A stretch of DNA of 64,000 nucleotides, taken from IMG/VR virus record IMGVR_UViG_2791355306_000002, positions 2,603-66,602 of that record. One strand, 5' to 3'. This document shows, piece by piece, positions 6,001 through 61,553 of the stretch. The translations under genes and the position numbers were made by a program. The DNA is from a virus. Taxonomy: Duplodnaviria > Caudoviricetes. The notes below the pieces were generated by a model. The model did no database searches and was not told where the DNA came from. It was given only the letters and a program-made list of their open reading frames with translations. Within the stretch, counting starts at the first letter, position 1. Each line of letters starts with the position of its first letter.

Positions 6001-9000
6001 TGACTAGTGTTTTCATCTTTCCAATTATTATAGAGATTACTGTACTTTACATCTTTAACTACTACCAATTTTAAATGGTTTAAATTCATTACAGCTGCTA
6101 TACCTAATTCTTGATATATTCTATTAGCATCTGATAAAGTAGCTTTTGATTCATCTACTTCTAAACCTACATCAGAGAGTATTTTCTTACCTACATCTTT
6201 AGCTAAAGTTGATAAAGGTATTCCTCTAAGTAAGAAATCTAAATCTTTTGAAGGGATTTCTCTCATACTTTTAAGATTAGGAGATACTTCTTTTAAATCT
6301 TTATAATTAGTATAAGAAAATCTATAATCAGTTAATGCTTCTAAAGCTCTAATAGTAGCTGAGAATTTAACATTATCATTTAAAAATAAAGTAGAAGTAT
6401 TGTTTATATTCTTATAATTTATATCCTTAGACATTAAAAAGTTAGTTGTGCTTAAAGCACCAAAGTAAGTTAAGAAAGGATTTATATCTAACTTTTCTTT
6501 AAACCCAAATGTTGAGCTTAAAGCAGTATTAATTCTCTCTTTTATTTCTTTTACTTTAGTATCGTTTTTAGTATCGTTTAGATCTCCTAATAAAGATTTA
6601 GGATTATCTTTAGGTTTAAGGATTTCATTTAAATTTAAAAGTCTGCTACTTAGTTCATTTTGTTCGTTACTTTTGTTTATTTTATTTTTTAGCCCATTTA
6701 TTGCTAAGCTTATTACTCCTTTGGCTTTATTTACAATACGATCTATAATCGATTTATCGTTATTTTCTTGTGTATCAATATCTGAATTTTCAAATGTACT
6801 ATCCATCTCTACACCAGCAGTAAGACCATAGAAATCTTTTACATTATTTATATTGTTTGTATTTTTAGAAGTACTACTGGTATGTACATTAACATCAGTA
6901 TCAGTATCTTTACTACTGTCCTTAGTTCCATTTCCCACTCTACTATTACTAAAAGTATTAAAATCTTTTCCTTCTTTAACTGTATAACCTCTATTTTTTA
7001 ATTCATTTTGTACCCAACCTTCACCATTTTTATTCCAATCTCTATTAGCATTTGAAGTGGTATCCATAATAATTTGCCCACCAGCCTCAAGTACTTTAAT
7101 AGCAGTATCTAATGCTCTTTGTCTATTCTCTTCAATATTTTTTCTATTACCACCATTAACAGATACAAATGCTTTTGTATTTTTATCTGGGTTTATATTT
7201 TCATTAACTGCTATCCCAGCTTTCTCAGCGTCCTTCATATAAGTATATGTACTTGAATTTACTACTCCGTATCCTATATAAGCATTAGCTTCATTAGCTT
7301 TTAACTGGTCTTTAATGGCATGTTGTGTTTTTTGTGTTAAAGTAAATCTACGATTTTGATTACCTTGACTATTTTCTTTTCCACCACTAGATTCTATAGT
7401 AGATTTACCACCTCCTTGCTTAGGTATAATTTGTTTTTCTACATCTTTTTTAGGAGTATCTTGTTTAACTTCTTGTTTAGGTTGTGTAGTAGTTTGAGTA
7501 TCCTTTTTAGCTGTTACTTCTTCATTATTTGTAGTAGTGTTGTTATTAGTAGTACTACCCATTTTACTACTACTTGGATCTATTAGATCTAAAGCAGCTT
7601 TGATAGCTCCACCTTCTCTTTCTACTTCCTTTCGTATATTTTTAAACAAATCTTCTATACTAACCTTATTATTTGGTTTAGTAGAGAATACATGTTCTCC
7701 AGACGCAATAGATGCGAATTCTCTTACAGCGTTCATTAAACTTTTTTTATCATCTATATAATTCTGCTTAGGATTATTTAAAGCTTTAATTAGCTCCTTA
7801 GCTCTTTTAGCAATACTTCCTGAAATACTTTCTGAATCCACTTCTTCTGAAGTAGTGTTTTCTTCTACTGGTGTTAAGGTTTTAAGGTAGCTGATTATTT
7901 TGTCTCTACCTCTATAAACTTTTACTTCCTTAAATACTTTATCTATTTCACCACTTGCATCTATATTTTTTGGTACTGTATATATAGCTTCACCAGCTTT
8001 ATTTTCTTTTAGATCTTTAAGGATATAAGTTAATAATCCATATTTAGCTCTATGGCTATTTAACCACCATTTTAAAGATGCTCTATCATCTCTTATAGTC
8101 TTTCCATTCTTGTCGAATTCTTTCTCTTCGTTTTGTCTTTGAGCTATCCTTTTAAGCATAGGAGCTAAACCTTCTTTTACCTCTCCAGTTGATGCCTTAG
8201 TTCCAGTTAGCATTGTACTAAGAGATGTATTTAATATTTGATTTCTACTCTTTTGAAATTCATCATTTTTATCTATTGGCTCACTTAAAACATCTATAGT
8301 TTTATTTATTTTAGATAATAAATCTTGCACTGTTACAACAGCTGATCCTTTAGAATTGTCCCCATTCTTTTCATCAAATTCTTCAGCTAACTCCTCTATA
8401 CCAGTTAGCTCACTAATAAACTTAGAAGCTTTTTTAAGATTATTCAATTGTTCTTGAGTATATTCTTTAACTGCTGCTTTTTGACCTTGCTTAATAGCAG
8501 CATTAATCATATTTTCATAACTACTCAACTTATCTCCCTCACCTTCGTTTTGGGTAGAAATATCGGAAGTTCCTCTTATAGCTCTAGCAAGTAACTGTTT
8601 TACTTGATCTGGATTAGTTAACATTTGTCTAGCTACATAGTAATCTAAAGCAGAATTATTCTCCATTTTCTTTTTAAACTCTGCTAGAGTACTTATAACT
8701 CCATCAGTATCTATATTAGGATCAGTTTTTATTATAGAGTCTATATGTTCATTTACTGCTTGTTCAGTTCTTTCTATAGATTCATATATTATCTCTTGTG
8801 AAGGTATCTCTCTACCATCTTTTTGTATATTGTTAAGGAAACCACTAGCTCCTAAAGAGAATACTTCATTTAGTAAAGGTATGTTTTTATTTACATTTAA
8901 AGGAGAATTTTCTGAAGTATATTCAGGATTGCTTTCCCAATCATTTAAACTTACTTGAGATAGATTATGGAATATATTATTCCTTAGTTCTGCTTCTTCT

Positions 9001-14832: not shown

Positions 14833-16068
14833 TTAGCGACTAGCTAGTACAAGACCTTTTAGTAGTTTTTCTTCTTGAGTAATGATACTTGCATACCAGA
14901 AGTTATAACTAAAGAATCCTTTAGTTCCAAATGGGTTGCTATGTTCTACTTGAGATGGAGACTTAGCATGGAATACAATCTTATTATGACCTTTTAGACC
15001 AACAGTAGCAAAGCTACCTTTAGTTGGATATAGGATTGGGAATACATCAAATTTAGCTCCATTACCAATCTCACCTGTATAACTAAGCTCACCTACATAA
15101 CCAGTAGGAACATCTGTACCTTTACCACGATATACCATAGCTGTCTCGCTTAGTACAAAGCGAGTGTCATGCATTTGACCAATCTCATTCTCAGCTAGGT
15201 TAGAGCTTGAAGCATATTTATAAGCAGGGATAAATACAAACTCTTTTTCCATATCTTTACCACGAGTTAGTAGATCTAGGTCAAATTTAATCTCAGGACC
15301 TACAATAGCGTAGTAAGCTGAATTTACTGGAGAGCTACCTACTTTATTACTACCTGTAACGATACTTGTAGTTTTCTCAGCTCTGTTTCTTAGAAGTTTC
15401 ATTTCACATCTTCTAATAAAATCATAACTAATTTTATACTCATGGTCTAATGTACCATCAGCAGTAATACCTACACCCATAGTAGCTAAGCTTGTAGCAG
15501 CTCCTGAGTACATTACTGTATTAGTTGATAGCATATCATTTTGTAGTAGATCTTCATATAGTAAGTTAGCATGTTGTCCTAACTCTTCTCTATATCTTAC
15601 TTGAATATCATCATTACTAAAGATATCTGCTTCATCAGTATAAGTTAGCATTGCTCCATATCTATTTAGATTAGTTTTAAGGTTGATCTTTTTAAGATTT
15701 ACTAGCTCACCACTATCAGCTCCTTCAGCTAGTCTTAAAGTAGCAAAACCACCACTTACATCTTCTAGATTTCTACTAGCTATAAAACCATATTTAGCAA
15801 ACTCTGGACCAGCTACATCTCTATCATAGTGTCTAAACCATCTTGATACAACATATTCTTTACCATACTTTGTAGGCATCTCTCTTTTATCAGCAAATTG
15901 TTGATAAACATTGATAGCATTAGCTGCTTCAATACCAGCTCTATCATAGTACTTTAGATATACATTCTCACCATGAGTAGAGTTATTACCTGCTTTATAC
16001 TCATGTCTCTCACCAGCTGCTGCTAGTACCTTACCTGTAAAACCTTTACTTTTTAAAATTTCAAACAT
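14833..16068 (-). CDS. Major capsid protein (N4 gp56 family)
   Basis: 411 aa; MPTKYGK, ENEIG, FDVFPIL, SFATVG, NPFGTKGFFS motifs typical of N4-type MCP. Confidence 0.9.
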   Translation of the reverse strand: MFEILKSKGFTGKVLAAAGERHEYKAGNNSTHGENVYLKYYDRAGIEAANAINVYQQFADKREMPTKYGKEYVVSRWFRHYDRDVAGPEFAKYGFIASRNLEDVSGGFATLRLAEGADSGELVNLKKINLKTNLNRYGAMLTYTDEADIFSNDDIQVRYREELGQHANLLYEDLLQNDMLSTNTVMYSGAATSLATMGVGITADGTLDHEYKISYDFIRRCEMKLLRNRAEKTTSIVTGSNKVGSSPVNSAYYAIVGPEIKFDLDLLTRGKDMEKEFVFIPAYKYASSSNLAENEIGQMHDTRFVLSETAMVYRGKGTDVPTGYVGELSYTGEIGNGAKFDVFPILYPTKGSFATVGLKGHNKIVFHAKSPSQVEHSNPFGTKGFFSYNFWYASIITQEEKLLKGLVLASR

Positions 16069-16084
16069 TAATTAACCACCTTTT

Positions 16085-17077
16085 TTAATATTGTCTTTGA
16101 AGCTTACTTCTCCAAGCATGATAATCCTCATCACTTAGCTCTTCATCTAAATAGTCAATAACTGTTTTTTTATCAGCTCTAGCTGATGGCAATGAAGCTG
16201 CTAATTTATTATCTCTATTAATTGGAGTAGTAGCTTTTATTTGTTGTTGAGATTTGATCTGATTTTGAGTATTTACATTTTTTAAATACTCACTACCTGC
16301 TTCCATGTAGTATTTTAGAAATGGTTGAGAATAACCATCTATCATAGCTCTTTTCTCAGCATATGGTAGTACTTGATCAAATAAACCTGATTTAATATCT
16401 TGATGTAATCCTGCTAACATAGCAGGGTTATTATTAATAGCTGTTTTAGAATTCTCATCTAGTTTAGAGTATATATCTGAAGTTCGGCTAAATTCAGAAT
16501 CTTTAGATATATCAGCAATCATCTCTTTCATATCTAATTGTGATTCATGTACTCTATACTCTGTAGGAGTGTAATCACTACTATCAGGTATATCATATAC
16601 ATCTATCTTACTATCACTTACTATTTTTGCTATAGCCTCTTTATTACCTTTTTTCAAATCTATTAAAAGATTAATATCTTCTGCTGATAATCCATTTTGT
16701 TCCATAGCAGCTATCATTGTTCTATATGGTTTAAGAGCTGTTGTTTTCTTTACATAATCCATACCTTTTGAAGCCATCTGTTTTAGCTCATCGATACTCA
16801 TATCATACTCTTTACCATTAGCTTTAATAGTATAAATATCATTGTTTTTTACAGATTCCTGTGAAGCTTCCTCACTAGCCTCGATTGGTTCTTCTGTGTT
16901 ACTACTTTCATACTCTATACTGTTTTCATCTACTTCATCTTCCTTGACTACTTCTTCACTATTTTCATTACTTATTTCTTCTTCGGTTTGCATTTTGCCA
17001 TTTGCCACCTCCTCTTCGTATTTTACTCTTTGAAATTCTTTTTCTAACTCTTCAGTACTCATATTATCATAATCCAT
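16085..17077 (-). CDS. N4 gp57-like protein (scaffold/tape-measure annotated family)
   Basis: Acidic N-terminus, IKANGKE and MASKGMDYVKK motifs, upstream of MCP. Confidence 0.7.
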   Translation of the reverse strand: MDYDNMSTEELEKEFQRVKYEEEVANGKMQTEEEISNENSEEVVKEDEVDENSIEYESSNTEEPIEASEEASQESVKNNDIYTIKANGKEYDMSIDELKQMASKGMDYVKKTTALKPYRTMIAAMEQNGLSAEDINLLIDLKKGNKEAIAKIVSDSKIDVYDIPDSSDYTPTEYRVHESQLDMKEMIADISKDSEFSRTSDIYSKLDENSKTAINNNPAMLAGLHQDIKSGLFDQVLPYAEKRAMIDGYSQPFLKYYMEAGSEYLKNVNTQNQIKSQQQIKATTPINRDNKLAASLPSARADKKTVIDYLDEELSDEDYHAWRSKLQRQY

Positions 17078-39972: not shown

Positions 39973-41856
39973 ATGGAAAAATATAGTAGAAGATCAGCAA
40001 AAGCTAAAATTAAAGCAATATGTGAATCACAGGATAAAAGTATCGAAGTTCTATCTAATAAAATATTAGAGTGGAAAGAAGAGTATTTAAAAGGTAACAT
40101 TGGTAAGCCTTACAAAACAAAAACTGATGTAGTAAATATGGTAACTGAAGATATAGCTGATGAGTTAGCCATATCTATACTATTTACTACAATCCTCTTA
40201 GGCAAGACTACATTTCAAAGCTACATAGGTCATGTAGCTTCTCAAATAAATTTAGAGATAGAAAGTTTTAGAAAAGCTCAACTTGCTGCTTGGGTATTAG
40301 CTTACTGTGATGGTGGAGCTTATAATATCATAGCTCCAGCAATTGGTTCTATGATGAATTATAGTGTAGAACCAAAGATATCTTTATCAATAGAAGATTC
40401 ACAAGAGTTAGCAAGATGTTTCTTCTTACCTCCTAGCAAGGATAAGTTAAATGATTGGACTAATCCATACAATGGTGGATATAGCTTTGAGAGAAGCTAT
40501 GCTATACTAGGTGATAGCTTTAACAAGCATGATTATCCAATAGATTTAAATACTCTAAATATCTTACAATCAGTTAAATATAAATTAACCAATAATGTTG
40601 ATACTCCTCAAAAACTTGATGAAGAAGCAAGTGATGATAGAGTAGTTCAATTTGCTTTAGCTGAGATACAGACTAGAAAGGTTCTAAAAGAGTATAGAGA
40701 TGATGAGTTCTCTTTTATGTGGAAATTCGATAAAAGAGGTAGAGTATATAGCTGTGGATATGATATAAATGTCCAAGGTGATAGTTATAGAAAAGCTTCT
40801 TTAGAATTTGCTAAAGAAGAGATAGTAAATGAGTCTGGTATGAGATGGTTAAAAATAGATATAGCCAATCATTATGGCTTAGATAAAGAGTTATGGGAAG
40901 ATAGAGTTAAGTTTGTAGATGAGAATGATTCTATCTTAGAAGCTTTAGCTGATAAGGCTGATGAACCACTACTATATATCCAAGCTGTTGAGGCTTACAG
41001 AAAAGCTCAAAGAGGATTACCAACTGGATATATAGTTAGACTCGATGCTACAGCCTCTGGTCCTCAAATAATGAATACTCTATTTAGAGATATTGAAGGT
41101 ATGAAATATCTAAATGTCCTTGGAGATGATACAAGATATGATTTATATACCTTAGTAGCAAAGATGATGTATGAAAATACCAAAGATTCTCAGATTTGGA
41201 GAGATTTAAATAATGACTTTGCTAAAGTAAGAAAAATCGTCAAAAAGCCAATTATGACAAGCTTTTATAACTCAACTTCTAAACCAAAAGAGATATTTGG
41301 TGAGAATACCATAGAGTTACAAGAGTTCTATAAAGCTTTAAAGAGATATTGTGAAGGAGCTTTAGCAGTACAAGATACTATTAATGCTTGTTGGAGTAAC
41401 TCTAAAGATGTAAATATCTGGACTTTACCAGATGGACATACAGCTTATTGTCCAGTAAGCAAAGTATTAGAGAGCAAAATAGAGATACCTGAAAAAGGTA
41501 TGAAGATTACTTATACTCATACAGTTCAAAAAGCTAACTTTGCTGAAAGTAGATCATTATGCCCAAATTTGGTACATAGTTTAGATGGTTATATTTGTAG
41601 AGAGATAGTTAAAAGATTACACTCTAAAGGTATAGAGGTATCTCCAATCCATGATAGTTTTGGAGTACATCCAAATAACTGTGATGAGCTTAGAAAAGTA
41701 TATAGAGAATTATTAGCTGAGATTTATGAAGAAGATACTCTGACAAATCTGTTAAAAGAGATTACAGGTAGTGATATCAATGTAGATATCCCAGCTGCTA
41801 ATGAAGACATAGCTCAAGCCATTAGAGATAATGTAAATGGCTATTACATCTGTTAA
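39973..41856 (+). CDS. T7-family single-subunit RNA polymerase (N4 RNAPII-like, one chain)
   Basis: DKRGRVY, LDATASGPQ, RKIVKKPIMTSFY, PNLVHSLD, IHDSF. Confidence 0.93.
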   Translation: MEKYSRRSAKAKIKAICESQDKSIEVLSNKILEWKEEYLKGNIGKPYKTKTDVVNMVTEDIADELAISILFTTILLGKTTFQSYIGHVASQINLEIESFRKAQLAAWVLAYCDGGAYNIIAPAIGSMMNYSVEPKISLSIEDSQELARCFFLPPSKDKLNDWTNPYNGGYSFERSYAILGDSFNKHDYPIDLNTLNILQSVKYKLTNNVDTPQKLDEEASDDRVVQFALAEIQTRKVLKEYRDDEFSFMWKFDKRGRVYSCGYDINVQGDSYRKASLEFAKEEIVNESGMRWLKIDIANHYGLDKELWEDRVKFVDENDSILEALADKADEPLLYIQAVEAYRKAQRGLPTGYIVRLDATASGPQIMNTLFRDIEGMKYLNVLGDDTRYDLYTLVAKMMYENTKDSQIWRDLNNDFAKVRKIVKKPIMTSFYNSTSKPKEIFGENTIELQEFYKALKRYCEGALAVQDTINACWSNSKDVNIWTLPDGHTAYCPVSKVLESKIEIPEKGMKITYTHTVQKANFAESRSLCPNLVHSLDGYICREIVKRLHSKGIEVSPIHDSFGVHPNNCDELRKVYRELLAEIYEEDTLTNLLKEITGSDINVDIPAANEDIAQAIRDNVNGYYIC

Positions 41857-43087: not shown

Positions 43088-43318
43088 ATGAAAGATTTTG
43101 TTGTTTTACAAAAAACATCAGAAAAAACAGACATATTTCTTTTTCTGAATTTAAAAGAACTAACAGAAATGTATTATGAAAATAAATTCTTTAGAAGAGA
43201 TGTTGATAATGGAAGACTTATTATCTATATGAGAGACCCTAAGAAAATTCAAGGTATGTTACATTCTCAACATAACTTAGACATAATCTCAGATAAACTC
43301 ATGGAGCTAATCCAATGA
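43088..43318 (+). CDS. Hypothetical protein, paralog of 42348
   Basis: Same pattern as 42348. Confidence 0.7.
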   Translation: MKDFVVLQKTSEKTDIFLFLNLKELTEMYYENKFFRRDVDNGRLIIYMRDPKKIQGMLHSQHNLDIISDKLMELIQ

Positions 43319-43686
43319 GAGTAGAAGATTATTACCTTATAGATGGTAATTACTTTTCAAAATGGAAATACACTTATGAAGATGCCTTGGAAATGTCTGA
43401 AACTCTAATTAACTGTAAAGAGTGTATAGATTGTCAAGACTGCATAGATTGTGAGTATTGTATAGGTTGTACAGACTGTAGAGAATGCCAAAGATGTGAA
43501 TGGTGTAGTAATTGCATCAATTGTACAGATTGTATGTATTGTTATGAATGTTACAAATTAGAGGGGAGTCTTATTTGTACGAAATGTAAATATTCTAAAA
43601 ATCTTTTTCAATGTTATAAGTGTGAGGATTGCTATGACTGTGGAAAAATTTTTAATTGCGAAAGACAAGAGAAGTTGCATGGATAA
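43315..43686 (+). CDS. (Cxx)n cysteine-repeat protein, copy 3
   Basis: DGNYFSK..TYEDAL..SETLINC then Cxx repeats. Confidence 0.85.
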   Translation: MRVEDYYLIDGNYFSKWKYTYEDALEMSETLINCKECIDCQDCIDCEYCIGCTDCRECQRCEWCSNCINCTDCMYCYECYKLEGSLICTKCKYSKNLFQCYKCEDCYDCGKIFNCERQEKLHG

Positions 43687-43695
43687 GGACCTAAA

Positions 43696-44634
43696 ATGAA
43701 ATCTTTCTTTTATATACCTAGATCCAAATACTATTTCATAGATGGTAACTATTTTTCTAAAAAGAAACATACATACAAACAAGCTGTTAAAGCTTCTAAG
43801 ACCTTGATAAATTGTACAGGGTGTATTGATTGCTATAAATGTACTGACTGTTCATGGTGTGAGAAGTGTAGAGAATGTACATATTGTTATATGTTATTTA
43901 ACTGTGAGAAATGTGTTAGTTGTTCATTTTGTCAAGAGTGTAGTAAATGTATAGAACTAAACTTCTCATATAACTGTAATAACTGTTTTTTCTGTAATCA
44001 TATAGAAATATGTAATGAGTGTATGTATCTAAGTTATAAACATAATCATGGCTTTAATAATTTAAATAAGGAGTGTTCGATGGAACAAATATTTTTAAAT
44101 TTAAAAGAGTGGAGAAGAGAGAGAAATATATCTTCTCAAATGCAAAGGGATAACTTTATAACTCTAATTCAAGAAGAGTTAAGAGAGTATTATGAAGCTA
44201 AAAATGTTGAAGAACAGATAGATGCTCTATCTGATATGGCAGTAGTTGCTATAAATTGTAGCAAATCATCTGCTCCAATATTTTTCCCAGGAGGTTACAA
44301 AGATATTGTAACTAACGATAAAGTATCATTTGGTGTAGCCATAGATAAGATAAAAGAGTTAGACTTTGATGATTCTGAAATAATGAAATTTTTAATCCTA
44401 ATAGCTAACAAGATAGAAGAGCTAGGTTATGATTTTATTCTATGCCTTCACGAGACAGTAAAAGAAATCTCATCAAGAACAGGACATTGGGATAAAGAAA
44501 AAGGTAAGTGGATTAAAAACACTTCAGAAGAAGCTAAAAAGATGTGGTACAAAGCAAACTACAAAAAATGTAGGATAATCGAAAAAGGCTGGGATGAATA
44601 TACTACAATAACTCGTTATAAAGGAGAAATATGA
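43696..44634 (+). CDS. Cysteine-repeat domain (copy 4) in frame with a MazG-like NTP pyrophosphohydrolase domain
   Basis: QEELREY..EQIDALSDMAVV, ETVKEISSRTG; internal AAGGAG plus ATG at 44080. Confidence 0.7.
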   Translation: MKSFFYIPRSKYYFIDGNYFSKKKHTYKQAVKASKTLINCTGCIDCYKCTDCSWCEKCRECTYCYMLFNCEKCVSCSFCQECSKCIELNFSYNCNNCFFCNHIEICNECMYLSYKHNHGFNNLNKECSMEQIFLNLKEWRRERNISSQMQRDNFITLIQEELREYYEAKNVEEQIDALSDMAVVAINCSKSSAPIFFPGGYKDIVTNDKVSFGVAIDKIKELDFDDSEIMKFLILIANKIEELGYDFILCLHETVKEISSRTGHWDKEKGKWIKNTSEEAKKMWYKANYKKCRIIEKGWDEYTTITRYKGEI

Positions 44635-45239
44635 AAGTAAAACTATTAAATGTTACACCTTTAAAGATAGCTATTAAAGCTATTAGAAGGTGTTATGATA
44701 GCTGTGGTGATGATCTAGGTAACAAAGATTTAAAATTACTAAAATCTATCATTAAAAATGGACATACATCTACAATAGAACATATTGTTTTTACCTTCGA
44801 TATTAAAGGTATCAGTAGAGCAGCCTTACAAGAGTTAGCTAGACATCGTATAGCTAGTTTAAGTGTTGAATCAACTAGATACACTCTTAAAAAGTTAAAA
44901 AATATAGATACAAGAGAATTTAAGTATGAAGACTACTTAGTTGAAACTGGTAACCCTATAGTTGATGTCTTTAATAGAGTTGGTTTAGATCGTACTATAT
45001 CTTGTTTAAACGAGAATATTAAAAATGATCTAACTAAATATACTCTACCAGAGAGCTACAAGACTAGCTTGATATGGACTATTAATGCTAGAAGTCTTAG
45101 AAACTTCTTAGAATTAAGAAGTAGTTCTAAAGCTCTATGGGAGCTAAGAGAGTTATCTAACGAGATAATAAACTCTTTACCTGAAGAGTATCTAATACTC
45201 TTTAAAGATATTATAAAGGAAGAAAGTAATGGGATATAG
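44631..45239 (+). CDS. thyX: FAD-dependent thymidylate synthase
   Basis: GHTSTIEH, ELARHRIASLSVESTRY, NARSLRNFLELR. Confidence 0.95.
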   Translation: MKVKLLNVTPLKIAIKAIRRCYDSCGDDLGNKDLKLLKSIIKNGHTSTIEHIVFTFDIKGISRAALQELARHRIASLSVESTRYTLKKLKNIDTREFKYEDYLVETGNPIVDVFNRVGLDRTISCLNENIKNDLTKYTLPESYKTSLIWTINARSLRNFLELRSSSKALWELRELSNEIINSLPEEYLILFKDIIKEESNGI

Positions 45240-45552
45240 ACCTCACCTTATAGAGACTTATATAGTTGAATATGGAAAAGTTTTAAACTGTGAAAATTGG
45301 GATACACAAGATTTCATAGATTTCTTATATGTAGCTGAAATAGAAGCTTGTCATAACTCTTTTGAAGATACTGATAAAGTCTATATAAATATAAATAATT
45401 TACTTTCTATCCCACTAGAAAAGAGAATAAAAAAGTTTAAAAAAGCTTATTCAAAAGCTAACCTTGAACTATCTTTAGAAGAGTATATAGAAAATATCGA
45501 AGATTTATATGAAGCTACTCAGTTCCCTGATGTTAAAAAAGGGAAGAAATAA
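45229..45552 (+). CDS. Hypothetical protein
   Basis: ORF overlapping the thyX stop. Confidence 0.6.
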   Translation: MGYRPHLIETYIVEYGKVLNCENWDTQDFIDFLYVAEIEACHNSFEDTDKVYININNLLSIPLEKRIKKFKKAYSKANLELSLEEYIENIEDLYEATQFPDVKKGKK

Positions 45553-45574
45553 TTATAGAGTGGTTTTAATTGCT

Positions 45575-45607
45575 AAAACCAAGACAGATCTGGTATATCT
45601 GTCTTGG
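45575..45607 (-). terminator. Hairpin ending the minus-strand peptide transcript
   Basis: CCAAGACAGAT/ATCTGTCTTGG 11-bp stem followed by TTTT on the minus strand. Confidence 0.6.
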
Positions 45608-45624
45608 AACAAGTAAATCGACAA

Positions 45625-45711
45625 TTATTTTTTAAGGAGTTCTTTTAGCTCTTCTTTAAAAAAGCTAATTATCCCAATAATAATTGTAACGGATAAAGTA
45701 AGTAAATCCAT
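45625..45711 (-). CDS. 28-aa type I toxin-like peptide (MDLLTLSVTIIIGIISFFKEELKELLKK)
   Basis: AGGTGG SD 5 nt before ATG; TM helix plus charged tail. Confidence 0.7.
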   Translation of the reverse strand: MDLLTLSVTIIIGIISFFKEELKELLKK

Positions 45712-45760
45712 TGTGGCCACCTAGTAGTAAAATCCTCCCTACACACCCAACTAAATATCC

Positions 45761-45840
45761 AAAAAAAAAGCCCGAACCCCAAAGAGTTCAGGCTTTATAC
45801 TACTAGGTTACTTGTTTTTACGGAGATACCAGCATCCGTA
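45761..45840 (-). ncRNA. ~80-nt sRNA/leader complementary to the SD region of the 28-aa peptide gene
   Basis: TATAAT 45846-45851 (minus), 5' hairpin, unpaired centre, terminator with G-U pairs and U9 tail. Confidence 0.65.
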
Positions 45841-45916
45841 GGGAGATTATATCTAATATTATATAAATTTATTTTTAAACATTATTACTAGATTTAAAAA
45901 TATAAAAAGGAGGAAA

Positions 45917-46117
45917 ATGTATAAATGTAATTGTTGTGAAAGTCTAATACCATTTACATACAGCAGTTGTCCTGTATGTGGTAATACTCTTTCACCAAAT
46001 TCTTTACACAAAGTAAAGAAAAAGATAAAAAAAGAAGAACAAGAAGAACTATCTCAAGATGACTCTAACCTAGTTGTAACATCTGATTTAGCATTAGAAG
46101 ATTTTAATTTAAATTAG
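45917..46117 (+). CDS. Small zinc-ribbon protein
   Basis: CxxC..CPVCG, AAGGAGG SD. Confidence 0.7.
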   Translation: MYKCNCCESLIPFTYSSCPVCGNTLSPNSLHKVKKKIKKEEQEELSQDDSNLVVTSDLALEDFNLN

Positions 46118-46164: not shown

Positions 46165-47097
46165 ATGATAATCCAAAGCTATAACTACAAAAATGTAGGA
46201 ATAACATATTTTCATAGTGACTGGTTACAAAAGATATCTAAGATGATGAGAGAGAATATCCCTGTAGATACTAAGATACCTAGCCATGGAGTACAAAGAG
46301 TTGGTAAAGAGTTTCAAAGAGAACTCTTTATGGAGTCTTATGAATACCAATTACACTTTTGGGCAATATCTTTTAGACAGATTCTTAGTGATTCTTATCT
46401 AGACCATATATTCCCTGTCCTATTCTATAATTACCCTATAGAAGCAGGTAGCAATTATGTCTTAGCAGAAGCTAAAGATATTGAAGATATGAGTAATAAA
46501 ACTCTAGATGCAGCTCAATGGAAAGCTGGTAAGTTAATAGAGGAACTACAATTAAACAAGGGTATAATTCTAAGTGATTATCAAATCAAATTAATACCTA
46601 TGTGTTCTATGCATAGACACCCCTACTCTTATAAAGGAGTAGATATGATACACACTATAGAAGGAGTACCTACTGGATTCTTAAAGGATAAATTCTCAGC
46701 AGAGGATAAAAGAAAAGGTCCTAATACAACAGGAATTGTATATCCTATTAAAGAACCTGCCATACCAGAACAACCTAGCTACTCTTGTATAATCAAAGAA
46801 GATTTTCAAGATAATAAAGAGGTTGCTTATATAGCTTGTGGAGAGTATAATCTAGTATCTAAAAAAGGTGATGATGTAGAGTATAGTTTAGAAAACTCTT
46901 ATACAGTTGTACTTAGAGATGATACAGATATTACTGATATCACATCAGCTATGAAACTTTGTGGTATAAAATCTAAAAAGAAAACCTATATAGTCTCTGA
47001 TAGAAAAGAGCTACATAAAAGAATGTTAATGGTAGATTCTTTATCTTTTACTCCTAAGTTTAATATAGATAGTAGGCTTACAAAGGTTAAGCTATGA
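46165..47097 (+). CDS. Hypothetical protein, possible JAB/MPN metallopeptidase fold
   Basis: YEYQ..SMHRHP..FSAED; start moved to the ATG at 46165 after AAAGGA. Confidence 0.45.
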   Translation: MIIQSYNYKNVGITYFHSDWLQKISKMMRENIPVDTKIPSHGVQRVGKEFQRELFMESYEYQLHFWAISFRQILSDSYLDHIFPVLFYNYPIEAGSNYVLAEAKDIEDMSNKTLDAAQWKAGKLIEELQLNKGIILSDYQIKLIPMCSMHRHPYSYKGVDMIHTIEGVPTGFLKDKFSAEDKRKGPNTTGIVYPIKEPAIPEQPSYSCIIKEDFQDNKEVAYIACGEYNLVSKKGDDVEYSLENSYTVVLRDDTDITDITSAMKLCGIKSKKKTYIVSDRKELHKRMLMVDSLSFTPKFNIDSRLTKVKL

Positions 47098-48119
47098 GAT
47101 ATAAACAGTGTGTAATAGATATAGAAACACCAATGTTTAAATCCTTACTATCAGAGATACAAAAGATATATTGTATATCTGTTAAAGTAGATGATGAACC
47201 TACTAAATGTTTTACATATCTATACCATAAAGATAGTGATGGAAACCTAGAAGCAGCATTAAGGTTAATTAATAGTTGTGAGTATGTAATAGGTCATAAC
47301 ATTATTAAATTTGATATACCTGTTATAGAAAATATAGTAGGCAAGGTTTTACCAAAAAGAGTTGATACATTAATTGATTCTAAACTAATGTATCCAAATG
47401 AAGTCTTAATAGCTATGGATAGATTAGTTAAAAACTATCCTCCAAATTTGCTTGGAAGTTATAGCTTAAAAGCCTTTGGTTATAGATTAGGTTTTAATAA
47501 GATTGAGTATGAAGATTTTACTAATCTCAATAGCGATATGATTGAATATTGTAAAAGAGATGTGGATCTAACATATGCAGTCTATAATAGACTAATTAGC
47601 AAAGATAACTATCCTAATGAGAATGTAAGAGAAGTAGAGTATCACTTTGCTAAATGTATTAGTGATCAACAAGAGTATGGATTTTACTTTGATTATGATA
47701 GAGCTATAAACTATGCCACTAGTTTAAAGATTAATAAACTAAGAATAGAACATAAGTTTAAAATGTTATTCAAACCTATCTTAATAAAAGATGGTGATGT
47801 AATTACTCCATCTAGAGAGACTAGAAGAAAGCTCTATATACCTACTAGGTTAGATCCTTTTAGAAATATTAGAGCTAAGAAGTATCAATTACAAATTGAT
47901 AAAAAAGGTAAATGGAAATTTCCTAAGAAATCTACTAAATGGTTTGATAAACCTCACAAGCTTACATATCAGATAACTAGTGGTCCATATCAAAAGATTA
48001 AATTACAAACCTTTAACCCTGGTAGTAGATCTCAAGTTATAGATAGAATTGTAAAAGAGTATGGTTGGAAACCTACTAACTATACTGAAAAAGGAGCTGC
48101 AAAGCTTGAATTTGAATAA
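47094..48119 (+). CDS. Family A DNA polymerase, N-terminal part (3'-5' exonuclease and thumb)
   Basis: IDIET, GHNIIKFD, SLKAFGYRLG, YCKRDV, FNPGSR..GWKPT.YTEKG. Confidence 0.92.
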   Translation: MRYKQCVIDIETPMFKSLLSEIQKIYCISVKVDDEPTKCFTYLYHKDSDGNLEAALRLINSCEYVIGHNIIKFDIPVIENIVGKVLPKRVDTLIDSKLMYPNEVLIAMDRLVKNYPPNLLGSYSLKAFGYRLGFNKIEYEDFTNLNSDMIEYCKRDVDLTYAVYNRLISKDNYPNENVREVEYHFAKCISDQQEYGFYFDYDRAINYATSLKINKLRIEHKFKMLFKPILIKDGDVITPSRETRRKLYIPTRLDPFRNIRAKKYQLQIDKKGKWKFPKKSTKWFDKPHKLTYQITSGPYQKIKLQTFNPGSRSQVIDRIVKEYGWKPTNYTEKGAAKLEFE

Positions 48120-48129
48120 GGAGTAACAG

Positions 48130-48642
48130 ATGAAATATATGTATGAACTAGATTACAACGATCTTGATATTGATAAAGAAAAGTTCATGGCTAACTTAGA
48201 AGAGCTTCATTATAAAGAGCCTAGAAATTATTACTACTCACTAGAAGCAATCTTTAAAAGATTAGGTGATCTAGATGATGGAGAGAATATAGCAAGTATC
48301 CTTGATGAGTGTAAGCTAATCTATGAAAATGGTATTGAGTGTGGATATGGTAAGTTTGTATTTTTTAGTGATACAAAACAGTTCTTTTGTGAGAATAAAG
48401 AGGTTATATTAGAGTATCTAGATTATATAGCAGATGGTATTTCAGATACAGAAGGTTACTCACTAGTGGATTTTATATGTGAGTATAAGGAAGGTAAAAA
48501 GTACTTAGAAGATTTTATCTATGATCCAGAAGAAAATTGTGGTAGCTTATATAATCTACTTGTTTGGATATATGTTCAATTTATGATTGACTCTTTAATG
48601 GAAGAAGACTCTGAAGAATTACTTAAAGGAGCTATAAAATGA
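48130..48642 (+). CDS. Highly acidic protein, paralog of 48639
   Basis: DIDKEKF, NGIECGYGKFVFFSDT, LYNLLVWIYVQ. Confidence 0.75.
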   Translation: MKYMYELDYNDLDIDKEKFMANLEELHYKEPRNYYYSLEAIFKRLGDLDDGENIASILDECKLIYENGIECGYGKFVFFSDTKQFFCENKEVILEYLDYIADGISDTEGYSLVDFICEYKEGKKYLEDFIYDPEENCGSLYNLLVWIYVQFMIDSLMEEDSEELLKGAIK

Positions 48643-49121
48643 TAATGGATATAGACTTTTCAGAATACGAAATTGATAAAGAAGGATTTATCAAAGAATT
48701 AGAAGATAGAGGATACTCTACTGTTAGAGAGATATTTGATTACCTAGGTGATGATATAGAAGAGATTTTATGGCATTGTAGAGATATTACAAAGCATGGT
48801 ATAGAGTCAGGATTTGGTAATTTCATCTATTATAGTGATACTGTAAAATTTTATAAAGATAATGCAAAAGAGATATTAAATCATCTAAAAGAGCTAGCTG
48901 GCTTTATGTATGATGATGAAGATACTTCATTAATCACATATCTTTATGAAAATGAAGTTTATAAGATATATTTAGAAGAGATGTTACTTGGAAATCCTGA
49001 TAGACTATATAATCACTTTACATGGATGTATGTTCAAGACATTATTACTGGGATAATGGGAGAGATGGATTATGTCTTATTAGATTATGCTACTTCTAAA
49101 GATGAAGATGATGATGAATAA
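48639..49121 (+). CDS. Highly acidic protein, paralog of 48130
   Basis: EIDKEGF, HGIESGFGNFIYYSDT, LYNHFTWMYVQ. Confidence 0.75.
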   Translation: MIMDIDFSEYEIDKEGFIKELEDRGYSTVREIFDYLGDDIEEILWHCRDITKHGIESGFGNFIYYSDTVKFYKDNAKEILNHLKELAGFMYDDEDTSLITYLYENEVYKIYLEEMLLGNPDRLYNHFTWMYVQDIITGIMGEMDYVLLDYATSKDEDDDE

Positions 49122-49197
49122 TACACTTTCTTTAATATCAGATATAGCAGCTGGTACTTTATTAGTAGGTATTATTCTATATTGGATATTTTCATGA
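49114..49197 (+). CDS. 27-aa membrane peptide (MNNTLSLISDIAAGTLLVGIILYWIFS)
   Basis: Overlaps the upstream stop and fills the gap. Confidence 0.5.
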   Translation: MNNTLSLISDIAAGTLLVGIILYWIFS

Positions 49198-49211
49198 TTA
49201 GGAGAGATAAG

Positions 49212-49415
49212 ATGAAAAAGATACCACTATTTAGATTAGCAGAGATTATGGATTTCTGGAGTGGAGCTAATCAAGGTGATTATTATCCTTCTGATATAGA
49301 AGAGCTATTAAGCGAAGTCCAAGAGTATGATTTTACAGATGTAAAAGATAATCTTATTACTTCTTTAAAAAGTTTTATGGACTATGAGAAAAAGTTAGAA
49401 CTACAAAATAAGTAA
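49212..49415 (+). CDS. Small acidic protein, paralog of 49426
   Basis: AGGAG SD supports the 49212 start; MKKIPL..EYDFTDVK. Confidence 0.7.
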   Translation: MKKIPLFRLAEIMDFWSGANQGDYYPSDIEELLSEVQEYDFTDVKDNLITSLKSFMDYEKKLELQNK

Positions 49416-49425
49416 AGGAGAACAA

Positions 49426-49623
49426 ATGAAAGAAATACCTTTAGAAGAATTAGAAGCACTGATAAATAGATTGTACCATGCTGAGAGAGGAGAAATTAGT
49501 ACTCTGACTATAGGAATTACTATAGACTGCATAGAAGAGTACGATTTCACAAACATAAAAGAGAGACTTCTTCAAAGGTTTCAAGCTGTATTTGATGAAC
49601 AAAACAGACTAGGACAAATATAA
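49426..49623 (+). CDS. Small acidic protein, paralog of 49212
   Basis: MKEIPL..EYDFTNIK. Confidence 0.7.
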   Translation: MKEIPLEELEALINRLYHAERGEISTLTIGITIDCIEEYDFTNIKERLLQRFQAVFDEQNRLGQI

Positions 49624-49643
49624 GCTAGATGAAAGGAGAGTAA

Positions 49644-49715
49644 ATGATTGATTTTATACTTTTATTAATAGCTATCTATATAGGATATAGGTTAGCTAAA
49701 AAGGTAATGAAGTGA
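49644..49715 (+). CDS. 23-aa membrane peptide (MIDFILLLIAIYIGYRLAKKVMK)
   Basis: AAGGAG SD; TGA overlaps the GTG of the polymerase C-terminal gene. Confidence 0.6.
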   Translation: MIDFILLLIAIYIGYRLAKKVMK

Positions 49716-50767
49716 GTTTAGAAGAAGTCTTAAATCTAGTTAAAGATTATCTAAAGATAAGTAAAGATTTATCTATGTTATTAGAGGGTAAAGGTAGTTT
49801 TATAAACTGCTATAACCCTACAACCCATAGAGTTCATGGTAAAGTAGATACTCTGGGGGCAGTAACTCAAAGATGTACTCATAATTCTCCTAACATAACT
49901 CAACTACCTAAAACTAGAGAGTTTAGAGAGCTTCTTACAGTCCCTGATGGTAAGGTATTAATAGATGTCGATGCTGGAGCATTGGAACTTGTAACACTAG
50001 GACACTACTTAGGCAAATTTGATAATTATGAATTTGCTAAGATTGTTGATAGTGGAGATAAATCTAAAGGTACAGATATTCATACTATCAATCAAAAAAG
50101 AGTAGGACTAGCTACTAGAGACCTAGCTAAAACATTTATATACTCAGTTGTCTATGGAGCTGGTAATACTAAAATTGGTGATTCTCTATGGACTGAAGGT
50201 CAAGAAGTCAAATATACTGCTAAAGAGTATCAAGAAGCTAAAGAAGCAGTAGATAAAAGAGTCATATATCTAGAAGGTAAAAAGTTCTTCCCAATAGCTA
50301 AAGGGACTCTAACTCCTTATAGCGAAGAACTAATCTTAAAAACCATATTTGGAACACAAGTATCCATAGCTTTTAGAGATAATACTAAAGGTTATAGAGA
50401 ACTTTGTGAATGGGCTATCTCTTCAGTTAATAACAACTATATATCTGCTTTAGATGGTAGAAAGTTATATCTTAGATCAGCTCATAAAGCTCTTAATCTA
50501 TATCTACAATCAGCTGGAGCTATCTATATGAAATATCTATTATGCCATATAGATAATCAACTAAGAGAGAAATATCAATATGGTAAAGAATTTGGTTATG
50601 TTGCAAATATCCACGATGCGATTAATATAGAGTGTAATCCTGACATAGCTAATGATATATGTGAAATATTATCTCAATCTTTCTTAGATACTTCATACAA
50701 TCTAGGATTTAAATATCCAGTTTATGGAGAACCTAAAATTGGTAAAAACCAATATGAAACACATTAA
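49712..50767 (+). CDS. Family A DNA polymerase, C-terminal catalytic part (T7-like)
   Basis: GAVTQRCTHNSPN, DVDAGALE, RDLAKTFIY..YGAG, ALN..QSAGA, NIHD. Confidence 0.93.
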   Translation: MSLEEVLNLVKDYLKISKDLSMLLEGKGSFINCYNPTTHRVHGKVDTLGAVTQRCTHNSPNITQLPKTREFRELLTVPDGKVLIDVDAGALELVTLGHYLGKFDNYEFAKIVDSGDKSKGTDIHTINQKRVGLATRDLAKTFIYSVVYGAGNTKIGDSLWTEGQEVKYTAKEYQEAKEAVDKRVIYLEGKKFFPIAKGTLTPYSEELILKTIFGTQVSIAFRDNTKGYRELCEWAISSVNNNYISALDGRKLYLRSAHKALNLYLQSAGAIYMKYLLCHIDNQLREKYQYGKEFGYVANIHDAINIECNPDIANDICEILSQSFLDTSYNLGFKYPVYGEPKIGKNQYETH

Positions 50768-58770: not shown

Positions 58771-60555
58771 ATGATAAACCCAAATAGTTTAAAAATATAC
58801 CAAGAGACATATTTTTTACCTAATGAAGATTATGCTTCTTGGGTAGATAGAATGACTATTGATCGTATCCATACTGGTAAAACTATAGACCCTTTAGGTA
58901 CAGATTTAGAATTCTTAAAAAGAATGAAAAAGTATATAACAAATCAATGGTTTCACCCAGCTACTCCAATAGCTTCTAACTTAGGTAGTAATAGAGGACT
59001 ACCTATTAGTTGTTTTGTAAGAGAGATAGAAGATTCTAAAGAAGGAATATTCTTTGCCTTTAATGAAGCTTTCTATCTAGGTAGTGAAGGAACAGGAATA
59101 GGAACACTCTGGTCTGATGTAAGACCAGTAGGTTCTCCTATTGCTAATGGTGTAAAAGGAAGTAGTAGTGGTATTATCCCATTTATTGCTATTAGTGATA
59201 GAGCTACATTAGCTGTATCTCAAGGAGGTATTAGAAGAGCTGCTGAAGCTGTATATTTAGATATCTCTCATCCTGAAATTGAAGAGTTTATAAATATTAG
59301 AAAACCTGATAGAGAACAAAATAGAAGTTGTCCTAATATCCATCATGCTGTAATCATTACTGATGAGTTTATGAAAGCAGTAGAGTCTAGAAGTATGTTT
59401 AATCTAATAGACCCTAAAACTAAACAAGTAGTAAAAGAGATAGATGCTTTTAAACTCTTTTGTTCTATCTTAGATGTTAGAACTAGATTTCAAGGAGAAC
59501 CATATCTATTCTTTAAAGATAATGCTAACAAAAATAGATCTAAACTTTATAAAGATACTAATAAAGAGATTAGATTATCTAACCTATGTACAGAGATAAA
59601 TTTACATACAGACTATGATAAATCTAATGTATGTTGCTTAGGTTCAATTAATCTAGAAAAGTTTGATGAATTCAGTAACGAATTCGAACAACTCGTTAAA
59701 GACTCTTTAAGATATCTAGACCATATCTTAGATTGTTTTGTAATTAGAGTATTAGGATTTGAAAATGGTAAAGAAGAAGCCTTTACTAGAGCTTTAAAAG
59801 GTATTAAAGAGGATAGACCACTGGGTCTAGGAGTTATGGGATTTCATAGTTTATTACAAAAACATTCTATAGCCTTTGAAGATTTAAATGCTAGTGCTTT
59901 TAATGATATTATATTTAATAGAATGAATGAAGCAGTTAAAGCTTATGAGAAAGAGTGTAAAGAAGATAGGTATCTTCCACCTTGTAAATTAACTTCACAA
60001 GAGAATTATTATAGAAATGCTACTCATATAGCTATAGCTCCTACTATGTCTATATCTAATCTATGTAATTTTACATCTCAAGGTATAGAACCATTTATGT
60101 CTAACTTTTATACTAAAAAGTTAAAACAAGGAAGTTTTCAAATTAAAAATCCTTACTTAGATAAAGTATTAAAAGATATAGCTAAAGAGAATGGTTATAC
60201 AGATACTTGGGTAGAAGATAGATGGAGAGATATAGTAAATGATGGTGGATCAGTTCAAAATCTAGATTGTTTAGATGAACATCAAAAAAGAGTATTTAAA
60301 ACAGCATTTGAGATAAATCAATTCTCAATTATCACCCTAGCTGCTAGAAGACAAAAGTATATAGACCAAGGACAATCAGTAAATCTATTCTTTAGAGCTG
60401 GTGAGAGTGTTAAGTATATCTATGATGTACATTTAAAAGCTTGGCAAAGAGGTCTTAATGCTTTGTATTATCAAAGAAGCTTAGCTGAATCTAGAGTTAA
60501 ATCATCTAATACTAGACAGGTAATAGAAGTTAAAGAGTGTGAGGTATGTCAATGA
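58771..60555 (+). CDS. nrdA: Ribonucleotide reductase class I alpha subunit
   Basis: ATP..ISCF, SNLCTE, IAPT, IDQGQS, LYY, C-terminal CEVC. Confidence 0.95.
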   Translation: MINPNSLKIYQETYFLPNEDYASWVDRMTIDRIHTGKTIDPLGTDLEFLKRMKKYITNQWFHPATPIASNLGSNRGLPISCFVREIEDSKEGIFFAFNEAFYLGSEGTGIGTLWSDVRPVGSPIANGVKGSSSGIIPFIAISDRATLAVSQGGIRRAAEAVYLDISHPEIEEFINIRKPDREQNRSCPNIHHAVIITDEFMKAVESRSMFNLIDPKTKQVVKEIDAFKLFCSILDVRTRFQGEPYLFFKDNANKNRSKLYKDTNKEIRLSNLCTEINLHTDYDKSNVCCLGSINLEKFDEFSNEFEQLVKDSLRYLDHILDCFVIRVLGFENGKEEAFTRALKGIKEDRPLGLGVMGFHSLLQKHSIAFEDLNASAFNDIIFNRMNEAVKAYEKECKEDRYLPPCKLTSQENYYRNATHIAIAPTMSISNLCNFTSQGIEPFMSNFYTKKLKQGSFQIKNPYLDKVLKDIAKENGYTDTWVEDRWRDIVNDGGSVQNLDCLDEHQKRVFKTAFEINQFSIITLAARRQKYIDQGQSVNLFFRAGESVKYIYDVHLKAWQRGLNALYYQRSLAESRVKSSNTRQVIEVKECEVCQ

Positions 60556-61553
60556 GTTTGGTTACTAGATATGGATTACCATTATATAAAACTAAAGAAG
60601 GTTTTAGATATCCCAAAGCTTTAGAGTTTTGGGATACTCATGATAAGATGGTATGGCATAAACATGAGGTTAGCTTAGGTGAAGATGTAAAACATTTTCA
60701 CCAAGCTTCACAAGAAGAAAAAGAGTTTATTATAAATATTCTTAGACTATTTACTCAAAATGATACTCAAGCTACTAGTGGTTATACTACTATGCTTAGA
60801 ATCTTTAAACCATTTGAAGTAACAGCAATGTTAGCTAGTTTCTTAGATAGAGAGATTACTCATGTTCAAGCCTATGCTAATCTAACTGATACATTAGGTT
60901 TAGGAGATCAGGTATATACTGAATTCTTAGAAATACCAGTTATGGAAAATAAGATATCTTATCTAGAAAAAGCTAAGGTTAAAAAGTATGAAGAGTATAA
61001 AGCCTTAGGTATGACTGATGTAGAAGTAGATAGAGAGTATAGGAGAAGTATAGCTAGAATGTTAGCTGTATATGCTTCAGGACTTGAATCAGTAGAGCTT
61101 ATGGCTCAATTTGCTATGTTACTTACATATCAAGAACAAGGTAAATATCCAGGTATGTGCGATACTGTTATATGGTCTATAAAAGATGAACAGATACATG
61201 TACTTGGTAACTCTTGGTTATTTAGAGAATTTATAAAAGAGAATCCTGATATATGGGACGATTCTTTAAAATTTGATATCTATCAAGCTATGAGAGAAAT
61301 TGTAGCAGGAGAAGATTCTTTACTTGAGTATCTTAATCCTCCTCACCTAGATAAAGAGCTATTTAAACAATATGTTAGACATAGAGCTGACTTTGCTTTA
61401 AAAGAGATAGGAATGAAACCTAACTGGGGAGTAGAGATAAATCCATTACCATATATGGATACAGTTACTGCTCCAGTACTGGCTGATTTCTTTAGTTCTA
61501 GAGTTACAGAGTATTCTACAAATTTAAATGGCTCTTGGGAAGACTTAAGGTAA
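60546..61553 (+). CDS. nrdB: Ribonucleotide reductase class I beta subunit
   Basis: FTQND, REITHVQAY, DEQIH, DFFS.RVTEY. Confidence 0.93.
   Translation: MSMSLVTRYGLPLYKTKEGFRYPKALEFWDTHDKMVWHKHEVSLGEDVKHFHQASQEEKEFIINILRLFTQNDTQATSGYTTMLRIFKPFEVTAMLASFLDREITHVQAYANLTDTLGLGDQVYTEFLEIPVMENKISYLEKAKVKKYEEYKALGMTDVEVDREYRRSIARMLAVYASGLESVELMAQFAMLLTYQEQGKYPGMCDTVIWSIKDEQIHVLGNSWLFREFIKENPDIWDDSLKFDIYQAMREIVAGEDSLLEYLNPPHLDKELFKQYVRHRADFALKEIGMKPNWGVEINPLPYMDTVTAPVLADFFSSRVTEYSTNLNGSWEDLR

Follow-up and report, generated by a model that had tools for sequence, protein, structure and literature searches.

The window analysed here, a 64,000-nucleotide (nt) stretch of DNA, makes up nearly all of a 66.6-kb virus record (IMGVR_UViG_2791355306_000002). 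Between two of its plus-strand genes (45229..45552 and 45917..46117) lies a 364-nt gap (45553-45916), and the minus strand of this gap holds, in order, a promoter-like box, a predicted small RNA ending in its own terminator, a leader with a ribosome-binding site, an open reading frame (ORF) of 28 codons and a 3′ hairpin. An earlier sequence-only reading of the DNA had claimed these elements, and each of them was found at the place claimed. The same arrangement recurs on mobile elements of Campylobacter and Helicobacter, and comparison of the copies points to what is probably a type I-like toxin-antitoxin module, in which the RNA antitoxin would be the terminated leader of the toxin transcript.

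Two perfect TATAAT boxes stand at the head of the module; all module features given below are on the minus strand. Contigs of four public runs (X2, X7, X19 and X20) that carry close relatives were compared with the window over 45400-46000. The upstream box (45863-45858) is destroyed by changes at 45861 and 45862 in X19 and X20, whereas the second (45846..45851) is without a change in them among the changes listed. At the place of the second box, other modules have TGnTATAAT, TAGAAT or TAAAAT. Since only this second box is kept in relatives, the RNA is predicted to start near 45839, 7 nt past the box and at the foot of a 5′ hairpin, and to end with a U-run, which gives a length of ∼79 nt (45761..45839). 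Folded alone, the small RNA has three parts. The 5′ hairpin (SL1, 45820..45839) is formed by ACGGA and UCCGU around a 10-nt loop that includes the bases CUGGUAU (45832-45826). It is followed by a 23-nt stretch predicted to be unpaired (AAAAACAAGUAACCUAGUAGUAU, 45797..45819) and by a terminator (45761..45796) with a stem of 13 pairs, six of them G-C (45796-45767), and nine U (45769-45761). A scan of 1.5 kb found two terminator-like sites, against 0.5 expected. No direct repeats were found inside 45761-45839.

The putative peptide message follows directly. Its 49-nt leader (45712..45760) has a G-rich block shared by most members of the family, GGAUAUUUAGUUGGGUGUGUAGGGAGGA, and then the segment targeted by the small RNA (45732-45719), which overlaps the ribosome site AGGUGG (45722-45717) five bases before the AUG. 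The ORF, MDLLTLSVTIIIGIISFFKEELKELLKK (45625..45711, with the ATG at 45711 and the stop at 45627-45625), would encode a peptide of 16 uncharged residues followed by a charged tail. A GTG start at 45720, which would give 31 residues, was disfavored: a change at 45713, present in all four runs, is nonsynonymous in that frame but falls in the spacer if the ATG is used, and relatives start at the ATG. Downstream of the ORF, a segment of the 3′ untranslated region (UTR), UUACUUGUU (45608..45616), leads into the 3′ hairpin and a UUUU tract (45575..45607). The stem of this hairpin has 11 pairs (45607-45579) and its 7-nt loop is AUACCAG (45596-45590). It was not listed in the terminator scan because only four T follow it.

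The small RNA is complementary to both ends of this message. The sequence-only reading had proposed two matches, and both proved to be perfect: the 11-mer ACCUAGUAGUA (45808-45798) is the complement of 45729-45719, over the region of the ribosome site, and the adjoining 9-mer AACAAGUAA (45816-45808) is the complement of the 3′ UTR segment at 45616-45608. The first match extends to 14 nt at 93%. A third contact, between the two hairpin loops, is an addition to that reading. The small RNA loop CUGGUAU can form seven pairs with the 3′ hairpin loop AUACCAG (-9.3 kcal/mol), and with the 9-mer added, the complementarity to the message's 3′ end is almost unbroken over 25 nt. When the small RNA was folded with the message, its open stretch bridged the ribosome site and the 3′ UTR.

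The changes listed for the close relatives fall outside these segments. X19 and X20 are unstranded contigs from one bovine-gut metatranscriptome study; X2 and X7 are DNA contigs, that of X2 from an isolate run. Among the changes listed, X19 and X20 have 22 substitutions in 45433-45548, which is part of the neighboring gene, and none in 45714-45842, which spans the ribosome site through the 5′ hairpin; the sole change in the small RNA is one extra A/T in the U-run. Both ORF changes listed (45637 and 45697, in X19, X20 and X7) are in third positions and synonymous. In the same three runs, the 3′ hairpin pair 45602/45584 is changed jointly from A-U to G-C. The RNA contigs end at 45761-45782 (X19) and at 45751/45752 (X20), and the DNA contigs X2 and X7 span the region. 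At the RNA level these breaks are no more than a weak hint, coming from unstranded contigs of one study in which no start, end or level can be read. In the isolate run X2, similarity to the window begins at 45548, with other sequence upstream; as this point lies just beyond the module, the downstream edge of the module is also a mosaic or recombination junction.

It might be asked whether the matches arose by chance, or whether the structure belongs to a plus-strand message that crosses the gap. The inverted repeats would indeed pair in a plus-strand RNA too, and the RNA contigs over the region do not reveal a strand. However, when the 191-nt downstream RNA was dinucleotide-shuffled, an 11-nt perfect match to the 23-nt open stretch arose in 19 of 5000 shuffles, and the 11-mer match together with the second, 9-mer match in 0 of 5000. 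Only the minus strand gives a legible TATAAT box, ribosome site and ORF, as well as the two U-runs. A change at 45587 converts G-C to G-U on the minus strand, which keeps the pair, and would create an A-C mismatch on the plus strand. With twenty further modules found in other contexts, we regard either explanation as highly improbable.

These further modules came from several searches. A sensitive blastn search of plasmids with the locus matched 17 Campylobacter plasmids, at unannotated spots where the whole module is present. With a Campylobacter jejuni module as query, 33 Campylobacter plasmids were matched, 31 of them typed as conjugative. A 22-nt consensus of a conserved leader block found 13 loci in contigs of one genome per species, 12 of which are real (in Helicobacter species and C. 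coli), and had no match among viral contigs. Of 401 genomes sampled from the order, 7 had a match to a profile of the peptide. The parsed set comprises 21 intact modules, that of the window included, and a subset of 15 was used for some tests. That an RNA and a peptide gene stand in tandem on one strand with a terminator between them, as the sequence-only reading had it for the window, holds for the 20 other modules as well. The carriers are plasmids, the phage and a chromosome-sized contig; on plasmids the module is found within operons for type IV secretion. Both genes that flank it run opposite to it in the window and in all six annotated plasmid loci examined, an orientation that shields it from outside read-through.

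The anatomy is uniform across the 21 modules. Each module has a TATAAT-type box and an RNA of 79-99 nt, in which a 5′ hairpin precedes an open stretch and then a terminator. The terminators have 10-16 pairs and energies of -12.8 to -19.0 kcal/mol, and all but one of the 21 have a run of 8-10 U. Ribosome sites are AGGAG or a close variant; the ORFs have 28-31 codons and encode 15-17 uncharged residues followed by a tail with a net charge of +1 to +4. A short 3′ UTR with a 3′ hairpin closes every module, and consensus structures of this hairpin and of the terminator hairpin are kept across the 15-module subset. An alignment of the window peptide with 10 relatives has the consensus MDLLNLFIAVIAVLITLFREEIRxILFKxKx, and the window's copy is the most divergent (25%–50% identity).

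In most members the best conserved part of the module is a block after the U-run, GG(C/A)UAUU..GUUGGG...GGG.GGA (45733-45760 in the window), for which a processing site, a ribosome standby site and a protein-binding site are candidate roles. Two other roles were considered. That of a promoter of the toxin gene was rejected: the block offers only TATTWR without the final T, reads CATTGA in three copies (L047-L049) and is absent in another (L044). Pairing of its GGGUGG with CCACCC of the 3′ hairpin is not supported, as members with GGGAGG, judged by eye on the alignments, have no compensating change.

It is in the pairing segments that the modules vary most; even so, each RNA matches the message of its own module. 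In the 15-module subset, the gain in RNAcofold energy was -14.3 kcal/mol with the own partner versus -5.9 with foreign ones, and the own message ranked first for 11 of the 15 RNAs and in the top three for all of them, values from which little cross-protection between modules would be expected. The three contacts were then scored separately in the 21 modules. For the open stretch against the ribosome site, the own partner gave -20.9 versus -11.0 for foreign partners and was best in 19 modules; for the open stretch against the 3′ UTR, the values were -12.8 versus -6.2 (own best in 15); and for the 5′ loop against the 3′ loop, -8.4 versus -6.3. The own loop was best in only 8 modules because many modules share loops. 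Homolog co-variation had been named by the sequence-only reading as a check, and it bore the proposal out: for each of the three contacts, none of 100,000 partner permutations reached the observed sum. The loops themselves change in step, as in UGGUA/UACCA, UGGCA/UGCCA, CGGUAA/UUACCG, GUGAUAAG/CUUAUCAC and GACUAA/UUAGUC, next to CUGGUAU/AUACCAG of the window. An extreme case is the H. pullorum copy (L024, 618-909, minus strand), where a perfect complement of 30 nt in the small RNA (-40 kcal/mol), far longer than the matches of other modules, covers the ribosome site together with the start codon and six codons of the peptide gene. Such a complement points clearly to closing of the translation start as the purpose of the RNA.

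Several copies have lost the ORF. In 12 of the 33 plasmids (H41-H52), the segment from codon 4 to the 3′ hairpin is deleted, and the promoter, RNA, terminator and leader are kept; C. jejuni plasmids L017 and L018 (1400-1600 in both) are examples of such RNA-only plasmids. These orphan RNAs could neutralize the intact module of related plasmids. Among the Helicobacter copies, one (L030) is without its ORF, and in another (L045) the terminator is gone and the ORF is truncated. The entire module stands in tandem in a C. fetus plasmid (L015 1-560 with L023 1-200) and, 567 nt apart, in contig 9 of one genome (G076, 15787-16437). Neighboring tandem copies differ in their pairing segments and loops, as if they were separate specificity groups.

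As to how the message is made, the 15-module subset was scanned for -10-like hexamers with at least five of six matches, A2 and T6 being required. No such box was found between the terminator U-run and the ribosome site in any of the 15 modules, and so read-through of the terminator is the simplest source of the message. On the opposite strand, no conserved place for a box was found: 7 of the 15 modules had none at all and in the others the boxes were scattered, which makes a cis-antisense antitoxin unlikely. Judging from this absence, the message most likely arises by terminator read-through and is perhaps then processed; a weak promoter that escaped recognition, or processing, would be other sources.

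The lack of a separate message promoter also suits a simpler scheme with a single transcript. The ∼80-nt RNA would then be just a structured 5′ leader, its hairpin and U-run an attenuator or stabilizer, and the contacts would form in cis only, in the manner of the fold-back of hok or aapA1. Indeed, the full-length RNA (291 nt) folds with exactly these three contacts closed in cis, at -88 to -89.6 kcal/mol and with a z score of -5.96 (0 of 200 shuffles fold as well), and the co-variation fits cis pairing as well as trans pairing. Against this stand the near-ideal intrinsic terminators of 20 of the 21 modules and the 12 plasmids that keep promoter, RNA and terminator after loss of the ORF. Moreover, a 30-bp cis helix over the start site of the H. 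pullorum copy would leave its message permanently closed. Loop-loop contacts are, in addition, the usual first step for antisense RNAs that meet their targets in trans. On balance, we consider it unlikely that the contacts serve in cis alone.

The nature of the peptide is the other point on which the reading turns. It may be a nontoxic small membrane protein, acting in transfer, entry exclusion or phage development, with the RNA tuning its level. The position of the module, inside plasmid type IV secretion operons and in the replication-gene region of the phage, would suit such a role. The window peptide has no match in NCBIfam, and against Pfam, Fst included, nothing was found at E ≤ 10 except DUF751 at E = 0.059, below the cut-off; the lack of a match to any toxin family is thus in line with an accessory protein. 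The same holds for weak, subthreshold hits to Dba, a model of a small Campylobacter membrane protein (16.4 bits versus a cut-off of 90). However, the ORF has been lost several times with the RNA kept, tandem copies occur, the module sits in contexts as unrelated as a phage, plasmids and a chromosome-sized contig, and the translation start is closed threefold. All of these would be typical features of a type I toxin rather than of an accessory protein, and a nontoxic role appears rather improbable to us. That the ORF has gone repeatedly while the RNA stayed is a pattern of decay typical of toxin genes and, like the tandem copies, an indirect sign of toxicity.

A toxin-antitoxin module with the terminated leader as antitoxin would work as follows. 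The strong promoter at 45851-45846 would drive a transcript that mostly stops at the strong terminator (45796-45761), giving an abundant RNA of ∼79 nt, and a minority that reads through would carry the gene for the small membrane peptide, the presumed toxin. A kissing contact would join the 5′ hairpin loop of the small RNA to the 3′ hairpin loop of the message, the open bases next to it would bind the 3′ UTR immediately ahead of the 3′ hairpin, and the next open bases would pair with the stretch overlapping the ribosome-binding site, which would thereby be occluded. The pairing may also invite RNase III. As long as the element and its short-lived RNA are present, the peptide would not be made, and the module would in this way stabilize the plasmid or phage that carries it. 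In the read-through transcript, the same segments could pair in cis and keep the message locked for as long as the leader is attached. Where sequence analysis can test it, the interpretation given by the sequence-only reading is supported; toxicity of the peptide, action of the short RNA in trans and origin of the message by read-through are three steps that we infer.

Several observations weigh against this interpretation or narrow its basis. Energy models cannot separate trans pairing from cis pairing in the read-through transcript. The 21 modules are mutually related and not independent, and the permutation test asks only whether partners match. In the lineage of the window, the pairing segments are without a listed change, which is conservation and not co-variation; the comparison there lists 40 of 70 differences, nearly complete for X19 and X20, the others being mostly of X7 and X2. 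The sole RNA data are unstranded contigs from the one metatranscriptome study, in which the start, end and strand of a transcript are not readable. For a membrane span, an uncharged run of 15-17 residues is short. After the window's 3′ hairpin there are just four U, a tract that is broken up in X19 and X20. Finally, the scheme does not account for the strongly conserved block after the U-run, for which no co-varying partner was found.

A wider picture can be drawn more tentatively, and we hold it to be possible rather than probable. One promoter would make both partners and the terminator would set their ratio, while the three-point hold would bring the two ends of the message together. The fast-changing segments would sort the rival plasmids and phages of Campylobacter and Helicobacter into immunity groups, RNA-only plasmids would be immune to the module of their relatives, and persistence of the phage of the window, which we take to be N4-like, would be aided.

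In the general type I layout, the antitoxin is encoded on the strand opposite to the toxin gene, and to our knowledge this is true of all layouts in the database T1TAdb. The RNA of the present module comes instead from the same strand, upstream. In other respects the module agrees with type I systems. Its gene for a small hydrophobic peptide has a separate ribosome site and is conserved in 11 aligned sequences, and its RNA is complementary to the presumed toxin message beyond chance and in a partner-specific manner in 21 modules, as judged in silico. The layouts that T1TAdb describes have the antisense RNA on the 5′ side without overlap, overlapping on the 3′ side or fully overlapped; in Fst/RNAII, where it is on the 3′ side, the interaction is described as not simply that of the overlap (PMC8594479). 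The module resembles this system, par of the Enterococcus plasmid pAD1 (Fst; RNA I/RNA II), in its two separated contacts, its hydrophobic peptide with a charged tail and its occurrence on plasmids. In par, RNA II meets RNA I at the start region and at the terminator hairpin, recognition begins at the terminator loops, and the two RNAs are convergent and share a bidirectional terminator. In contrast, the RNAs of the module are in tandem on one strand, each with its own hairpin and with U-runs on the minus strand only, and the peptide is without a match to Fst or another Pfam toxin.

Like the antitoxins of the enterobacterial systems TisB/IstR-1, ShoB/OhsC, Zor/Orz and DinQ/AgrB, the RNA of the module is upstream of the toxin gene, does not overlap it and has a short, imperfect complementarity to the 5′ leader. 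In these systems, the genes are divergent and the primary message is inert until its 5′ end is processed. A primary transcript closed to translation is likely in the module too. The TisB/IstR-1 group differs in that the antitoxin lies on the opposite strand, each partner has its own promoter and contact is with the 5′ leader only, whereas the module has apparently one promoter, a terminator between the partners and additional contacts at the 3′ end.

The AapA1/IsoA1 system of Helicobacter pylori has a closed full-length message, kissing loops and decay by RNase III, and AapA homologs occur on Campylobacter plasmids and prophages (PMC5416894). Going by this account, the module shares with it the bacterial order, a peptide of ∼30 residues, a closed message and the kissing loops. 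IsoA1, however, is a cis-antisense antitoxin as described there, while the module has no conserved antisense promoter of the AapA/IsoA kind, opposite the 5′ UTR and the start of the ORF, and uses an RNA of the same strand; it is on layout that the two are set apart.

A same-strand RNA regulator is known from phage P1. The c4 RNA is cut from the same transcript as its target, and two short pairing segments determine its immunity specificity. In c4-icd-ant (immI), one operon holds the antisense RNA and, downstream, its target (PMC8198154). As the system is outlined there, P1/P7 c4 covers the ribosome site of icd, a small gene that inhibits growth. The module resembles it in having a short upstream RNA of the same strand and transcription unit, on a phage or plasmid, that would act in this way on the presumed toxin gene, a likeness that extends to pairing segments that are short and differ in sequence between related elements. 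Unlike c4, which is processed, makes a 5′ contact only and has antirepressor genes downstream, the RNA of the module has its own terminator. No match to the Rfam C4 model was found here, and Rfam gave no match at the gathering score over the whole window; matches at E ≤ 10 were weak, terminator-driven and far below threshold.

Type III systems of the ToxIN kind have antitoxin RNAs made of repeat arrays that bind an endoribonuclease toxin protein, and a terminator limits read-through into the toxin gene. The sequence-only reading had likened the locus to these. In layout the likeness stands, as antitoxin RNA, terminator and toxin gene follow each other on one strand. It does not extend to repeats or to a protein partner: the RNA of the module has no repeats, the product has 28 residues and the partner that co-varies with the RNA is an mRNA.

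A type I system on the C. jejuni plasmid pVir, cjrA/cjpT, is said to have been reported by Shen et al. 2016, Mol Microbiol 101:909. The accounts cited here present it, with its RNA antitoxin, as the sole type I system so far described from a plasmid of Campylobacter (PMC7826846, PMC10470494). The pVir record of strain 81-176 (L022) held no relative of the module in an nhmmer search with a six-module profile (best E-value 4.8), no match to the peptide and leader-block patterns and, in a tblastn search with the peptide, a best E-value of 0.058 over 16 residues. A run of eight T with GGCTATTAA at ∼26636 on its minus strand was considered and rejected, there being no module around it. The module is thus set apart from cjrA/cjpT by sequence searches of pVir only. 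Taken together, the sequences are best filed as a variant of type I systems that is same-strand, terminator-separated and held by three contacts, on mobile elements of Campylobacter and Helicobacter.

Neither the 28- nor the 31-residue form of the peptide was found in a collection of 15 billion proteins. In the plasmid tables used, which list no RNA genes, the peptide appears as an unnamed 'hypothetical protein' if it appears at all (H34, H37). No published description of the module was found, and an earlier one may exist.

The element that carries the window's copy has the gene set of a large, lytic-type phage. Terminase-like and other genes are on the minus strand up to ∼37.5 kb, among them a 3475-residue ORF (3-10427) without a Pfam match, and plus-strand genes follow. 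The plus-strand arm encodes a T7-type RNA polymerase, pieces of polymerase A, a helicase, a ribonucleotide reductase and ThyX; the plus-strand stretches concerned are 39973-41856, 47094-50767 and 58771-61553. From this gene set and the two-arm layout, we presume a resemblance to N4-like phages. The module lies within the replication-gene region. The virus record carries a provirus label. A 321-residue protein adjoining the module has 31 relatives at 79%–93% identity, of which the named ones are all from Campylobacter, and for one phage protein, relatives occur on 69-70 kb contigs as well as on Campylobacter contigs 1.6-1.7 Mb in length. Nearby plus-strand genes encode proteins rich in CxxC repeats (43315-43686 and 43696-44634), the second of which has a weak MazG/PRA-PH-like C-terminal match (E = 0.14). 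With the 321-residue protein or its alignment as query, no related locus was found in viral, genome or metagenome contigs. Phage records had no match to the locus region (blastn), the neighbor protein or the peptide (tblastn), and an exact 19-mer of the small RNA was absent from the viral contigs searched.

Searches for type I systems look for an antisense RNA opposite or divergent to the toxin gene, and a same-strand family such as this one escapes them. If the reading is correct, the module joins the layout logic of type III systems and P1 c4 to the base-pairing logic of type I systems, and its at least 21 matched RNA pairs would be a natural set in which to follow the evolution of specificity. 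Persistence of an N4-like phage in Campylobacter would be unusual. The module would provide a maintenance function for the conjugative plasmids of Campylobacter and for the N4-like phage found within Campylobacter isolate assemblies, and it would explain the plasmids that keep only the RNA.

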